A stretch of DNA of 32,000 nt from Xylella taiwanensis. Lineage in GTDB: Bacteria; Pseudomonadota; Gammaproteobacteria; Xanthomonadales; Xanthomonadaceae. Below, one piece after another: positions 19,469-22,814 of the stretch. Position 1 is the first letter of the stretch. Every line of letters starts with the position of its first letter. The notes beneath the pieces were generated by a model, which was given only the letters and a program-made list of their open reading frames with translations, did no database searches and had not been told where the DNA came from. Made by a program: the position numbers and the translations under genes. The stretch spans positions 2,520,001 through 2,552,000 of the forward strand of contig NZ_CP053627.1 of assembly GCF_013177435.1 (NCBI RefSeq). The letters are read 5' to 3'.

Positions 19469-20143
19469 ATGAGCTACGGCATAAAGCTCCACATCTGGGG
19501 TCCGCGGGCACTGTTCACACGCCCCGAATTCAAAGTTGAACGTTTCTCTTACGACGTCATCACTCCCTCAGCCGCACGCGGCATCTTAGAAGCGATTTAC
19601 TGGAAACCGGAAATGCGTTGGATCGTGGACGCTATCCAGATACTCAAACCGATCCGTTTCGAATCTATCCGCCGCAACGAAGTTGGCAGCAAACTCTCGG
19701 CCACCAACGCCAGTAAGGCCATGAGGGCCGGCCGCACTGACGGATTGGTCAACTATGTTGAAGAAGACCGGCAACCACGTGCGACCACCGTACTGCGGGA
19801 CGTCGGCTATGTGATTGCCGCGCATATCGCACTGACCAACAAAGCCAAATCCGATGCAAACATCGGTAAATATCTTGATATCTTCAAACGCCGCGCACGG
19901 CGTGGGCGTTGCTTCCAATCTCCCTGCCTGGGCACACGCGAATTCCCCGCTCATTTCTCGCTGATCGAAGATAACAGCTCCGCCCCTGAATCAGATTTCA
20001 CACTGATAGGCGAGCGCGATCTGGGATGGATCCTTCACGACATTGACTTCACTCACGGCATAGCACCACGTTTCTTCCGGGCACACATGATCAATGGACT
20101 GATCAAAGTACCAACACTGAGTAGTGGCGAGATACATACATGA
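19469..20143 (+). CDS. cas5c: type I-C Cas5c (Cas5d) Cascade subunit / pre-crRNA endoribonuclease
   Basis: 224 aa. WGPRALFTRPEFKVERFSYDVITPSAARGILEAIYWKP and FKRRARRGRCFQSPCLGTREFPAHF match the Cas5d family pattern. Its stop overlaps the cas8c start (ATGA at 20140-20143). Confidence 0.93.
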   Translation: MSYGIKLHIWGPRALFTRPEFKVERFSYDVITPSAARGILEAIYWKPEMRWIVDAIQILKPIRFESIRRNEVGSKLSATNASKAMRAGRTDGLVNYVEEDRQPRATTVLRDVGYVIAAHIALTNKAKSDANIGKYLDIFKRRARRGRCFQSPCLGTREFPAHFSLIEDNSSAPESDFTLIGERDLGWILHDIDFTHGIAPRFFRAHMINGLIKVPTLSSGEIHT

Positions 20144-21951
20144 TCCTGAGCGCACTCACCACGTACTACCAACGCCTGCTGGATACACCAGATTCGGGTA
20201 TCGCCCAACCCGGTTACAGCCAGGAAAAGATCAGCTACGCCATCATCCTGGCTCTGGACGGACGTGTCGTCGATGTACACGATCTATGCGACGGTGGCAG
20301 TAAGAAACCCATCCCTGTATGGATGAACGTGCCACACTCAGAAAAACGCACTGTCGCAATCAAGCCCAATTTTCTATGGGACAAAACCAGCTATGCATTA
20401 GGTATCAGCGCCACCGGCAAACGTAACGAGCAGGAACATGCGGCATTCAAGGCACTTCATCAAGACATCCTCGCTGGCACTGAGGATGACGGTCTTAAAG
20501 CATTACTCGCCTTTCTCGCGCACTGGACACCAGAACGTTTCCAAAAAGAGTACACATTCATCCGCCAAGGGAAAACCATGCTGGATACCAATGTAGTATT
20601 CCGCCTGGATGGCGCAGCAGATTACCTGCACGTACAGCCCGCAGCATGCGCAGCTTGGGCACGTCGGCAAAACAGAACAACCGAAAGTACCAACGGTATG
20701 TGCTTGGTCACCGGTGAATATGCCCCCATCGCTCGCTTGCATCCTGCAATTAAAGGCGTCAATGGCGCACAAAGCTCCGGCGCATCCATGGTCTCGTTTA
20801 ACTTGGAAGCATTCACTTCTTACGGCAAGTCACAAGGCGAAAACGCTCCAATCTCCGCACAAGCCGCCTCTGCCTATGCCAGCGCACTCAACCAATTGCT
20901 GCGACGGGGCCGACACAACCAGCAATGTCTGTTGATTGGCGACACCACAGTCGTGTTCTGGGCCGAATCGCCAGCAGTGAATAAGGCAAAAAAAGCCGAA
21001 GATGAGTTCTCTGTCTTCCTTAACCCAAACGACAAAGACGAACGCACCACCCAAAAACTGTGGAATCTCCTAGAACACATCCGTCAAGGACAGCCACTGC
21101 GTGATCTGGACGGAGACCTCGACGATGACACACGTATCTTCGTGCTTGGGTTAGCCCCGAATGCTTCACGGTTATCAATCCGTTTCTGGGAAACAGCTTC
21201 ACTCGCAGCCTTCGCCAAGCGTTTTTCAGACCACTACAACGATCTATTACTGAACCCAATACCGTGGTGCCACACCCCATCACCACAACTGCTAGCCCTG
21301 CAAACCGCACCCATCCGTAACGGCAAAACCAAACCCGAGGACATACCACCCCTATTAGCTGGAGAACTGACACGCGCCATCCTCACCGGAACCCGTTATC
21401 CACACAGCGTGCTCGGCGCACTCGTCATGCGATTCCGCGCCGACAGGAAAATTTCCCCATTACGAGTGGCCCTATGCAAGGCCATCCTAGCCCGTCATGC
21501 GCGGCTGGGAAGAGAGCAAAAAAACCAAACTAACAAGAAGGAACCTCCCATGAGTCTTGATCTGCACAATCATGATCCCGGCTACCTGCTGGGACGCTTA
21601 TTCTCGATGCTGGAGCACGTCCAGAGCGCCGCACTCGGCATGCACATTAACGCCAATATCTGTGATCACTATTACGGCGCAGCATCAGCCACGCCACTGC
21701 GCATCTTCCCGATGTTAGTGCGCAATTCAAAAAATCACCTCCGCAAACTACGCAAAGAAAAACCCTGGCTGTGGATCACACTCGATACAGAAATCGTCCA
21801 GATCATCAACCTGCTGCAATCGGCCTTCCCTCGGCACCTGAAGATCGAAGAACAAGGATGGTTCGCCATCGGTTACTACCACCAAACCCAAGCGTGCTTC
21901 GCCCATCATAACGACCAGTGTGTCGCCCATAGCGAAGGAAAAGCTGCATGA
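20140..21951 (+). CDS. cas8c: type I-C large subunit Cas8c (Csd1)
   Basis: 603 aa. The N-terminus [15 protein letters not shown]...[23 protein letters not shown] is typical of Csd1. The length is full. Its stop overlaps the cas7c start (ATGA at 21948-21951). Confidence 0.93.
21550..21951 (+). CDS. cas11c: putative internally translated small subunit Cas11c (in-frame C-terminal product of cas8c)
   Basis: An in-frame ATG at 21550 (codon 471 of cas8c) is preceded by GAAGGAA 7-9 nt upstream. The product is 133 aa, beginning [25 protein letters not shown]. In characterised I-C systems Cas11c is made from an internal start in cas8c. Confidence 0.5.
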
Positions 21952-22814
21952 GCGCTATCGCCCACCGTTATGAGTTTGTCTACCTGTTCGACGTGATCAA
22001 CGGCAATCCCAACGGTGATCCCGATGCCGGCAACCTGCCACGATTAGACCCGGAAACCCAGCACGGTTTAGTCACCGATGTGGCACTCAAGCGCAAAATC
22101 CGCAACTACGTCGCACTGGAGAAAGGAAACCAGCCTGGTTACGCGATTTACATGCAGGAAAAATCAGTGCTGAATAATCAGCATAAACAAGCCTATATCG
22201 CACTGAACCTAGAACACGATCCTCCAAAACGCCCCAAGGACGAGGACAAAGCCCGTGAATTAACGGCATGGATGTGTAAGAACTTCTTTGATATACGCAC
22301 CTTCGGCGCCGTGATGACCACCGAGGTCAATGCCGGACAGGTCCGCGGCCCAGTGCAGTTGGCATTCGCCAGCTCCATTGATCCTGTACTGCCCATAGAA
22401 ATCTCGATCACCCGTATGGCAGTGACTAACGAAAAAGATCAAGAAAAAGAGCGCACCATGGGTCGCAAACATATCCTGCCCTACGCCCTTTATCGTATGC
22501 ATGGCTTCATCTCTGCGAAACTGGCCGAACGCACCGGCTTCTCCGAAGACGACCTGCAACTACTGTGGCGCGCATTAACCAATCTGTTTGAACACGACCG
22601 CTCCGCAGCACGCTGCCAAATGGCAGCACGCAAACTGATCACGTTCCAGCATGAGCATCCCATGGGGAATGCACCAGCACACCTTCTGTTCGAGAAAATA
22701 AAGGTCGAACGAGCGGATAGCACGTCACCAGCACCAGCACGCCGCTTTGCCGATTACCGCATCGACATCGACCTTGACATGCCCGCAGGCGTGACCGTCG
22801 ACGAGGTTTTCTGA
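21948..22814 (+). CDS. cas7c: type I-C backbone subunit Cas7c (Csd2)
   Basis: 288 aa. [49 protein letters not shown] is the hallmark Csd2 N-terminal block. The length is full. Confidence 0.95.

Follow-up and report, generated by a model that had tools for sequence, protein, structure and literature searches.

Apparent selective retention of a type I-C Cascade and one guide unit at an inherited CRISPR locus of Xylella taiwanensis that has lost its cutting and memory genes

The 32-kb stretch of the Xylella taiwanensis chromosome analysed here (the window) contains a type I-C CRISPR-Cas locus whose neighbours are all housekeeping genes (priA, rpoH, ung, ftsEX, rhlB, trxA, rho, icd, ctpA and envC). 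X. taiwanensis is a xylem-limited pathogen of pear. A 2019 publication described the eroded cas operon of X. taiwanensis PLS229 as 'vestigial', and a survey of Xylella genomes found it to be the sole cas locus in X. taiwanensis and reported none in X. fastidiosa (bioRxiv 10.1101/731166). The initial annotation had supposed that such a relic was undescribed, which holds in part: the operon itself was already in print, but that publication did not call it selected or functional.

Three genes of the locus are intact, all on the forward strand: cas5c (19469..20143; 224 aa), encoding the pre-crRNA endonuclease and Cascade subunit, cas8c (20140..21951; 603 aa), encoding the large subunit, and cas7c (21948..22814; 288 aa), encoding the backbone subunit. 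As initially annotated, the three ORFs are full length and joined by two ATGA overlaps (20140-20143 and 21948-21951). Their products match the corresponding NCBIfam families end to end and far above the cut-offs (Cas5c, TIGR01876, 177 bits against 85; Cas8c/Csd1, TIGR01863, 545 against 219; Cas7/Csd2, TIGR02589, 386 against 182). This agrees with the type I-C parts list, in which cas6 is absent and for which homologues of solved structure exist. Highly conserved columns are retained at 97/108 positions in Cas5c, and conserved columns at 147/153 in Cas8c and 156/162 in Cas7c. Cas8c aligns with solved I-C Cas8c structures and its PAM loop, GAQSSGAS, is conserved. The Cas8c region aligned with the Cas3 'recruit loop' retains AED and several hydrophobic residues; being neither clearly degenerate nor clearly conserved, it is uninformative as evidence. 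A predicted internal in-frame ORF of cas8c, cas11c (21550..21951, forward strand; 133 aa), begins with an ATG downstream of GAAGGA. Its start codon is a GTG or ATG in 77/77 relatives, and its product matches the solved Cas11c chains 8g9s_H and 7kha_K. Four conserved arginines have been lost from this part of Cas8c and, together with the loss of 11/108 highly conserved positions in Cas5c, which exceeds that of every relative, they could indicate partial decay. The segment between cas3 and cas5c (19052..19468, forward strand) is presumed to hold the Cascade operon promoter from its position, which fits the 360-nt gap of X. translucens; no consensus sigma-70 site was found in it upstream of cas5c, which counts against the repressor model proposed below.

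The remaining cas genes are lost or decayed. Of the cas3 HD nuclease-helicase, the locus holds only the 3'-terminal 185 nt (18868..19051, forward strand; nhmmer E 6e-14, profile 2078-2260 of ~2300), a remnant backed by two collinear protein-HMM matches and by tblastn matches. No HD or helicase part was detectable by HMM or nhmmer upstream of 18868. The 5' 2.1 kb of the gene looks deleted, rather than surviving as the motif ghosts described at first. Changes at 19/43 conserved sites of this remnant point to a decay at least equal to that of cas4 and cas1. The cas4 pseudogene (22835..23420, forward strand; nhmmer 22847-23365, E 1.5e-34) bears 2 stops and ~4 frameshifts. The cas1 pseudogene (23370..24095, forward strand; nhmmer 23381-24083, E 3.6e-60, spanning nt 6-760 of ~1035) covers codons 1 to ~260 of 346 and bears at least 3-6 frameshifts and 2 stops. 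Together they carry 8 disruptions (conservative count) or 14 (frameshift-aware alignment, disregarding its over-extension of cas1 past ~24095 into an AT-rich segment) over ~1.3 kb, so that the description of both genes as full of stops and frameshifts holds. An ORF finder is not wholly blind outside the Cascade block, as had been stated, since a 147-aa Cas1 fragment is detected at 23363-23806. cas2 left no trace at the locus by tblastn, protein HMM or nhmmer; unrecognisable as claimed, it is missing and not eroded in place, as is the 3' third of cas1. The adaptation module thus consists of two pseudogenes and one absent gene. This Cascade-only state is exceptional, as all of the 71 informative related I-C loci are complete.

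The array, on the forward strand, is reduced to three repeats and two spacers, the number of spacers first reported. It is preceded by a decayed leader (24355..24544) that still aligns with the leaders of relatives (176-189 nt), with a promoter-like site (24282-24311) in the AT-rich segment just upstream. Repeat 1 (24545..24575) is intact in its 3'-terminal 17 nt, which hold the 11-nt handle of the predicted crRNA 5' end, UGGAUUGAAAC; compared with the repeat of X. translucens it has 4 differences, each within the mutated 5' 14 nt. They leave its hairpin damaged, with a weakened alternative fold, which makes the 5' processing of the first guide uncertain. Spacer 1 (24576..24609; 34 nt) is followed by repeat 2 (24610..24640), a canonical I-C repeat that forms a 7-bp stem and bears the ATTGAAAC handle. 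Repeat 2 differs from that of X. translucens at a single base (a T-G pair becoming T-A), folds with -15.7 kcal/mol (z -2.9) and matches Rfam CRISPR-DR9 (E 0.01), the sole known RNA family match in 17.4-26 kb. Beyond spacer 2 (24641..24674; 34 nt), repeat 3 (24675..24705) differs at 11/31 positions, mostly by G to A changes, and has lost its hairpin, no stable fold being found. The expected I-C array, made of hairpin repeats with an 11-nt 3' handle ending in ATTGAAAC, is hence represented by one canonical, one half-intact and one degenerate repeat. Over the 48 nt made up of repeat 2 and the 3'-terminal 17 nt of repeat 1, a single change accumulated, whereas the remaining array (45 nt) took up 15 (Fisher 5e-5). 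Since these parts are conserved while the remaining array decays, a guide seems to be needed for the retained Cascade.

Three segments of the locus, without assigned strand, gave no Pfam, Rfam or homology signal and no coding potential. The first, between icd and the cas3 remnant (17548..18867), showed no cas3 signal by HMM or nhmmer, no Pfam match on its ORFs and no similarity to related loci; pieces of it (17548-17789, 17889-17917 and 18671-18800) are common to X. fastidiosa. The second is the AT-rich segment (24096..24354; 33% GC) and the third is non-coding DNA 3' of the array (24706..25824).

The locus is orthologous to the canonical I-C systems of Xanthomonadaceae (X. translucens, X. cucurbitae, X. 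albilineans and X. oryzae), which occupy the same icd-adjacent site in the same gene order. Identity reaches 83% for Cas7c (X. translucens), 71-73% for Cas5c and 62-66% for Cas8c; the 31-nt repeat is the same bar one base, the leader is homologous and the internal Cas11c start is common to them. Unlike these systems, X. taiwanensis has a 185-nt cas3 stub, pseudogenes for cas4 and cas1, no cas2 and only 2 spacers. In 8 related loci icd adjoins cas3, and the X. taiwanensis locus lies beside icd as in Xanthomonas. The Cascade genes have a host-like GC3 of 0.57-0.61 (relatives' median 0.69-0.73). Consequently, the locus descended vertically, and a recent gain or re-acquisition of the Cascade genes is ruled out by the same two observations.

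At the same site X. fastidiosa carries a decayed 329-nt piece of cas5c, which places the locus in the common ancestor of Xylella and corrects the view that X. fastidiosa never had CRISPR-Cas. A single deletion in that species (19818-25825) removed Cascade, the array and the 1.1 kb of unassigned DNA 3' of it together. Since the split, the relic has undergone 29 amino acid changes (two stops included) against 2 in X. taiwanensis cas5c, and 38 changes at codon positions 1+2 against 4 (binomial 6e-8), a direct record of post-split selection that spans 104 codons of cas5c only. Host genes of the two species differ by a dS of 0.37-0.59, that is ~0.2-0.3 per lineage. Set beside the divergence (K) of the remnants at sites conserved in relatives (cas4 0.35, cas1 0.30, X. 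fastidiosa cas5c relic 0.28), this makes the decay of the locus about as old as the species split.

At the same class of sites, K is 0.046 in the intact cas5c, 0.026 in cas8c and 0.023 in cas7c, the change in the cas4 and cas1 remnants being about ten times that of the Cascade genes. In DNA composed like the decayed segments, 1115 codons would stay open with a probability of ~3e-20. The disruption density of the neighbouring pseudogenes (6.4-10.7 per kb) predicts 21-36 disruptions in the 3.35-kb Cascade block, in which there are 0 (P 5e-10 to 3e-16). As initially argued, a block left open by chance is thus excluded (P below 1e-9). The comparison with Xanthomonas orthologues that had been proposed gave a dN/dS of 0.05-0.2 for the Cascade genes, alongside a K of 0.02-0.05 against 0.30-0.35 in the cas4 and cas1 remnants. 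Strains of X. taiwanensis are near-identical (0-1 SNP in 20 kb), leaving within-species dN/dS powerless. No sister-lineage orthologue of Cas8c or Cas5c at 75%-100% identity was present among 5.8 billion protein clusters, and the one contig examined of a Japanese X. taiwanensis-like assembly (L088) ends short of the locus. The purifying selection on Cascade first proposed is upheld by the 2 versus 29 changes in cas5c, by the ten-fold lower conserved-site change and by the uneven conservation within the array. On these sequence comparisons, long-term purifying selection on Cascade and one crRNA unit is well supported. The locus is an inherited CRISPR locus that has lost its cutting and memory genes, with three Cascade genes and one guide unit apparently under selection.

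The function of the retained Cascade is most likely a Cas3-independent DNA binding, and its job is probably a non-cutting one such as gene silencing. Such a binding-only mechanism is plausible because related complexes repress promoters: in X. albilineans, I-C Cascade by itself lowered the activity of a TTC-flanked promoter about 700-fold (PMC10810201), and with crRNA-like RNAs as guides I-C Cascades act as promoter repressors (bioRxiv 10.1101/2024.12.27.630466). In X. albilineans, the Cas3 of a self-targeting I-C system is blocked by AcrIC11, and a gene-regulator role was suggested by the authors (PMC10810201). By analogy, the closely related Cascade of X. taiwanensis may bind DNA without degrading it. 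The two cases differ in that the nuclease of X. albilineans is present and blocked by a protein, with adaptation genes and long arrays persisting, whereas in X. taiwanensis the nuclease gene itself is gone, a state as old as the species split.

We give an even chance to the proposal that the X. taiwanensis I-C Cascade is a fixed-guide, CRISPRi-type repressor working without Cas3 and kept by selection. Near the Xylella split, cas3 and cas2 were apparently lost by deletion, and cas4 and cas1 by frameshifts and stops. X. fastidiosa afterwards deleted almost all of the remaining locus, and X. taiwanensis kept cas5c, cas8c/cas11c, cas7c and one complete repeat-spacer-repeat unit under purifying selection. 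According to the proposed model, a short pre-crRNA would be cut by Cas5c, and Cascade would assemble on a fixed guide in which spacer 1 stands between the 11-nt handle from the first repeat and the hairpin from the second; spacer 2 might provide another guide. Once bound to a TTC-flanked DNA target, and lacking any Cas3 to recruit, the complex would stay in place as a roadblock. It would thus be a CRISPRi-type repressor of natural origin, silencing a gene of the chromosome or of a prophage to the advantage of the cell. The fuller statement, that the I-C effector turned into a nuclease-free silencer of a host or prophage gene and was kept as such for as long as the species has existed, falls just short of an even chance and is put forward tentatively.

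Spacer targets flanked by a 5'-TTC PAM, for which a search had been recommended, were not found in the window or in the phage, plasmid and IMG/VR collections. In the window, the best TTC-flanked seeds of either spacer (4-6 nt) are at chance level, and neither spacer has a target in 50,697 phage records, 72,556 plasmids or IMG/VR. The lack of targets in these sets counts against the repressor model, as does the fact that X. fastidiosa lives without Cascade. The single match, to 22 nt of spacer 1, was rejected as a target; it lacks a TTC PAM and then breaks off, and such matches are as numerous as expected by chance. No stand-alone repeat-like unit or CreA-like element besides the array rises above shuffled controls in the window, a 10/11 handle match at 18148-18158 being at chance level. 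Local CreR-type autoregulation and a local CreTA module are unsupported, as no PAM-flanked spacer target lies in the window.

These searches bear on an alternative that we regard as unlikely, in which Cascade and its guide hold down a toxic gene or a toxic RNA, as in CreTA or a CRISPR-supervised defence system. Loss of any Cascade gene would then be lethal, with cas3 and the adaptation genes free to decay. Such an addiction predicts the exact pattern of kept and lost genes, the joint X. fastidiosa deletion is what an escape from it would require, and CreTA and I-C crRNA-like circuits are documented. However, the window holds no PAM-flanked partial spacer match and no extra repeat-like unit, and known modules of this kind belong to otherwise complete systems. 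The unassigned DNA (17548-18867, 24096-24354 and 24706-25824) contains no recognisable toxin or defence gene or Rfam family; a small RNA toxin could escape such searches.

Rather improbable is the reading, implied by the published description (bioRxiv 10.1101/731166), of a vestige without present function; selection on it would have ended only recently. The excess of changes at conserved positions in Cas5c and the Cas11c region, the damage to repeats 1 and 3 and the missing spacer targets fit it, as does read-archive assembly L087, where an A7 to A6 slip (tract 21518-24) would truncate Cas8c. Nevertheless, most Cas5c changes are common to the X. fastidiosa relic and so predate the split, only 2 amino acid changes followed it against 29 in the relic, and the Cascade proteins are identical and intact in 32 contigs, complete genomes included. 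Judged by the disruption density of the neighbours, a neutral phase of the 3.35 kb can further fill no more than ~8-14% of the period elapsed since those genes were inactivated (95% bound).

Little probability goes to a guide-free role of Cas5c, Cas8c and Cas7c, such as DevTRS-type regulation or a Cas5c RNase. The Cascade-like DevTRS proteins of Myxococcus negatively autoregulate the dev operon, and the failure to find a guide target would suit this explanation. It is opposed by the conservation of repeat 2 and the repeat 1 handle far beyond neutral expectation while the flanking array decays, by the retained PAM loop and internal Cas11c start, and by the conservation of all three subunits together. 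Conventional interference, in which another cas3 would provide the nuclease in trans and to which the residues kept in the 'recruit loop' region might lend support, is very improbable given that the Xylella survey reported no other cas operon (bioRxiv 10.1101/731166), that immunity from two old spacers matching no phage or plasmid record and without adaptation genes would be of minimal value, and that decay has gone no less far in the cas3 remnant than in cas4 and cas1.

The proposed fixed-guide repressor also compares with known regulatory or nuclease-free systems. Tn7-like CRISPR-associated transposons and type IV systems likewise combine a Cascade-type effector lacking Cas3 and adaptation genes with a very short array. 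Unlike them, the X. taiwanensis locus is chromosomal, vertically inherited and devoid of transposition, DinG or Csf genes, with no tnsA, tnsB, tnsC or tniQ beside Cascade. In CreTA, CreR and crRNA-like circuits, including the I-C 'CRISIS', a short and partly degenerate repeat-spacer unit guides Cascade to repress, and the Cascade genes become indispensable while cas3 does not. Those units are extras inside complete immune loci with a PAM-flanked partial target nearby, whereas that of X. taiwanensis is a main-array remnant, has no target in the window and has lost the immune part. In DevTRS of Myxococcus xanthus, homologues of Cas8, Cas7 and Cas5 have a regulatory, non-immune role. The dev operon, however, is tied to development and possesses a dedicated target (devI autoregulation); in X. 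taiwanensis no counterpart is visible.

Nuclease-free reuse of type I systems has precedents in transposons, in type IV systems and in regulatory RNAs added to immune loci that are otherwise complete. In X. taiwanensis, a chromosomal I-C locus of vertical descent has shed its nuclease and adaptation genes, with Cascade and one guide alone still selected over a species-level timescale. If confirmed, it would be a clean natural case of immunity passing into regulation (or addiction). If the silencer reading is true, it would represent natural chromosomal CRISPRi over a gene important to a xylem-limited plant pathogen and could bring to light a gene whose silence X. taiwanensis requires; the single guide, known PAM and 2.8-Mb genome make testing direct. 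Finally, a 133-aa member of the Cas8c cluster proved to be merely the Cas11c ORF, from a short contig with a 1-nt homopolymer difference.

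This stretch of the chromosome of the pear leaf scorch pathogen Xylella taiwanensis carries three intact type I-C Cascade genes, cas5c (19469-20143), cas8c (20140-21951) and cas7c (21948-22814), which match the NCBIfam type I-C Cas5c, Cas8c/Csd1 and Cas7/Csd2 models end to end with scores that exceed the curated cut-offs by a factor of two to three. The three full-length ORFs and both ATGA stop/start overlaps (cas5c/cas8c and cas8c/cas7c) claimed in the initial annotation are indeed present. The proteins are letter-identical in 32 X. taiwanensis contigs, 2.82-Mb complete genomes among them, a within-species comparison that is powerless to reveal selection. 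An internal small-subunit start within cas8c is typical of type I-C. Codon 471 of cas8c is an ATG with GAAGGA upstream of it, its column holds GTG or ATG in 77 of 77 relatives, and the 133 residues downstream align to solved Cas11c chains, so that the internal Cas11c start is retained. An A7 tract lies at 21518-21524, 26 nt upstream of this start. It reads A6 in a read-archive assembly (L087, SRR11805344, 974-979), the other 1,890 bases being identical, and A7 in the 32 other contigs; A6 would end Cas8c at a TGA overlapping the Cas11c ATG, leaving Cas11c as a separate ORF, and may stem either from a sequencing error or from real slippage at the tract.

To assess the flanks, the window was searched with protein and nucleotide profiles derived from intact cas3, cas4, cas1 and cas2 of 80 related loci. 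Remnants of cas4 (22847-23365; nhmmer E 1.5e-34) and cas1 (23381-24083; nhmmer E 3.6e-60; nt 6-760 of about 1035 only) hold, over about 1.3 kb, 8 stops and frameshifts by a conservative count of HMM frame changes and 14 by frameshift-aware alignment, and neither kind of profile found a trace of cas2 in the window. The description of cas4 and cas1 as riddled with disruptions was accurate. That of cas3 as surviving in motif ghosts was not: only its last 185 nt are left (18868-19051; E 6e-14), and no cas3 signal was detected by either profile type in the 1.3 kb separating this stub from icd, which points to deletion of the HD and helicase parts rather than erosion. A leader of about 190 nt still aligns to those of the relatives. 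Between it and the cas1 remnant lies an AT-rich stretch (24096-24354; 33% GC vs 49-51% in other decayed DNA) that contains a 32-codon ORF (24162-24260). The + strand of the decayed DNA (17548-19468 and 22815-25924) is markedly rich in A (0.28-0.32) and C (0.28-0.33), with G at 0.17-0.20 and T at 0.20-0.23. Most changes in the third array repeat and in the X. fastidiosa relic described below are G-to-A and T-to-C transitions, and this strand-specific mutational drift marks neutral sequence in the X. taiwanensis genome.

As in the window, cas3 is immediately preceded by an oppositely oriented icd in Xanthomonas translucens, X. cucurbitae and X. bromi, and likewise in Xanthomonas sp. GPE 39, two Pseudoxanthomonas, an Oleiagrimonas and one MAG. 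The locus is therefore orthologous to that of the relatives and was vertically inherited. Recent re-acquisition of the Cascade genes was ruled out since their GC3 (0.57-0.61) is like that of host genes in the window (0.50-0.65) and unlike the relatives' median (0.69-0.73). The full set of seven genes occurs in all 71 related loci on long enough contigs, the nine incomplete loci all being cut by contig ends, and the Cascade-only state is therefore exceptional among related loci.

X. fastidiosa is usually described as being without CRISPR-Cas. Its ctpA and icd are only 1.08 kb apart, and between them we found bits of the upstream DNA and a 329-nt cas5c piece (corresponding to 19490-19817 of the window, 75.7% identity) with two stops and three frameshifting indels; a single deletion joined cas5c codon 116 to a point 100 nt past the ctpA stop. 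The relic, seen in X. fastidiosa sequences L083 (11473-11844), L084 and L085, is annotated by gene callers as an ORF for a hypothetical protein (123-145 aa). Its presence shows that the common ancestor of Xylella carried the I-C locus. Direct post-split evidence is limited to the first 116 codons of cas5c, where differences at 104 aligned codons, polarised with eleven outgroups, assign 29 amino-acid changes to X. fastidiosa vs 2 to X. taiwanensis (H44Y, K86R), and 38 vs 4 changes at codon positions 1+2 (binomial P = 6e-8 for 4 of 42). Nine more changes are common to both species and hence older than the split.

Jukes-Cantor distances (K) at codon positions 1+2, in columns with at least 95% conservation across 60-78 relatives, are 0.35 for the cas4 remnant, 0.30 for that of cas1, 0.28 for the X. 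fastidiosa cas5c relic and, on 43 sites only, 0.67 for the cas3 stub, as against 0.046, 0.026 and 0.023 for intact cas5c, cas8c and cas7c. Synonymous divergence between the two species in six host genes is 0.37-0.59, about 0.2-0.3 per lineage. Set against this value, the remnants indicate that cas4 and cas1 have been neutral since about the species split, and cas3 likewise as far as 43 sites tell. At the remnants' density, the 3.35 kb of Cascade genes should hold 21-36 disruptions, but no such lesion was seen (P 5e-10 to 3e-16); any neutral phase of these genes would span at most roughly a tenth of the adaptation-gene decay period. When the genes are paired with their Xanthomonas orthologues, dN/dS comes to 0.05-0.2, dS being close to saturation. 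The purifying selection on Cascade proposed in the initial annotation is thus upheld by amino-acid changes in cas5c, disruptions, substitution levels relative to the remnants and dN/dS alike. No intermediate orthologue was found in the collections searched.

The array, as first described, is down to two 34-nt spacers (24576-24609 and 24641-24674) between three repeats (24545-24575, 24610-24640 and 24675-24705). Compared with the X. translucens repeat, repeat 2 has a single substitution, by which a T-G stem pair becomes T-A. Repeat 1 has four differences, none of them beyond its first 14 nt, and the remaining 17 nt, the source of the first guide's 11-nt 5' handle, are untouched, while repeat 3 is altered at 11 of 31 positions, mostly by G to A as in the drift of all decayed DNA on the + strand, and has lost its hairpin. 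Repeat 2 and the last 17 nt of repeat 1 thus show one change in 48 nt vs 15 in the remaining 45 nt (Fisher 5e-5). The conserved parts outline one whole guide unit (repeat 1 handle, spacer 1 and repeat 2 hairpin) and also include the handle for the second guide, a differential conservation which argues that the guide RNA, and not the proteins alone, is under selection. Each repeat is preceded by a similar 7-nt sequence (CAATGAC 24538-24544, CAGTAAC 24603-24609 and CAGTCAC 24668-24674), whose CA(A/G)T can base-pair with the handle's ATTG and so add 4 bp to the predicted hairpin; this feature was not seen in the relatives' leaders and may reflect repeat-junction duplication or selection. In the unassigned DNA upstream of the cas3 stub, TGGATTTAAAC (18148-18158) agrees with the repeat handle at 10 of 11 nt; this is at chance level, with about 0.5 such matches expected, and there is no hairpin before it.

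Some constraints seem altered. Highly conserved columns are kept at 96% in Cas8c and Cas7c, within or near the relatives' range, vs only 90% in Cas5c, lower than in every relative. Most of these Cas5c changes are common to the X. fastidiosa relic and so predate the split. Cas5c residue 44 (19598-19600) is Tyr, vs His in at least 95% of relatives; Bacillus halodurans Cas5d also has Tyr at the corresponding catalytic site, by which analogy H44Y may be functionally neutral. X. taiwanensis-specific changes at conserved Cas8c positions concentrate in the Cas11c part (21550-21951, residues 471-603; 5/52 vs 1/101, P 0.02), where four conserved arginines are lost (R496S, R508C, R510H and R586C); these may reflect altered non-target-strand handling or a mutation bias against CGN codons. 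The Cas8c PAM loop is unaltered. For the region aligned with the Cas3 'recruit loop', neither retention nor loss is clear.

Binding without cutting is proven for the I-C Cascade family: that of the closely related X. albilineans system, when expressed without Cas3, repressed a TTC-flanked promoter about 700-fold (PMC10810201), and I-C Cascades repress promoters via crRNA-like RNAs (bioRxiv 10.1101/2024.12.27.630466). By analogy, and given the conserved genes and guide unit, the X. taiwanensis Cascade with its guide would bind DNA independently of Cas3 and repress some target, a reading to which we give roughly an even chance. Within the 32-kb window, no TTC-flanked seed of either spacer exceeds 4-6 nt and no extra repeat-like unit was found, so that neither autoregulation of a local cas promoter nor a local CreTA-like pair is supported; the spacers gave only chance-level matches, in unrelated hosts, in phage, plasmid and IMG/VR collections. 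The guide may have a distant target, in the chromosome or in a prophage. An addiction variant of this guide-dependent repression seems unlikely. The eroded operon's gene content, published in 2019, was read as vestigial (bioRxiv 10.1101/731166); a vestige on which selection was recently relaxed is, however, still less probable given how brief any neutral phase of the Cascade genes would have been. Below it we place a guide-independent role of the Cas5c, Cas8c and Cas7c proteins, which is doubtful. Interference relying on a trans-supplied nuclease is very improbable; against a Cas3 of this kind weighs a survey of 20 Xylella genomes, which reports the eroded operon as the sole cas locus of X. 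taiwanensis and no such locus for X. fastidiosa (bioRxiv 10.1101/731166).

In kind, guide-dependent binding and repression by this Cascade would be a nuclease-free reuse of a type I system. Unlike CRISPR-associated transposons and type IV systems, the locus is chromosomal, vertically inherited and has no mobile-element link, and unlike in the CreTA, CreR and crlRNA circuits, its immune part is gone. In the literature searched, we found no report of the cas3, cas4 and cas1 pseudogene remnants, of the X. fastidiosa cas5c relic, of decay dated to the species split or of quantitative support for purifying selection acting on Cascade and on one guide unit. Elsewhere in the window, Rho (12466-14337) is of the long form, with an ORF of 623 aa (564 aa as called) and about 200 residues N-terminal to the part matching the standard Rho model.
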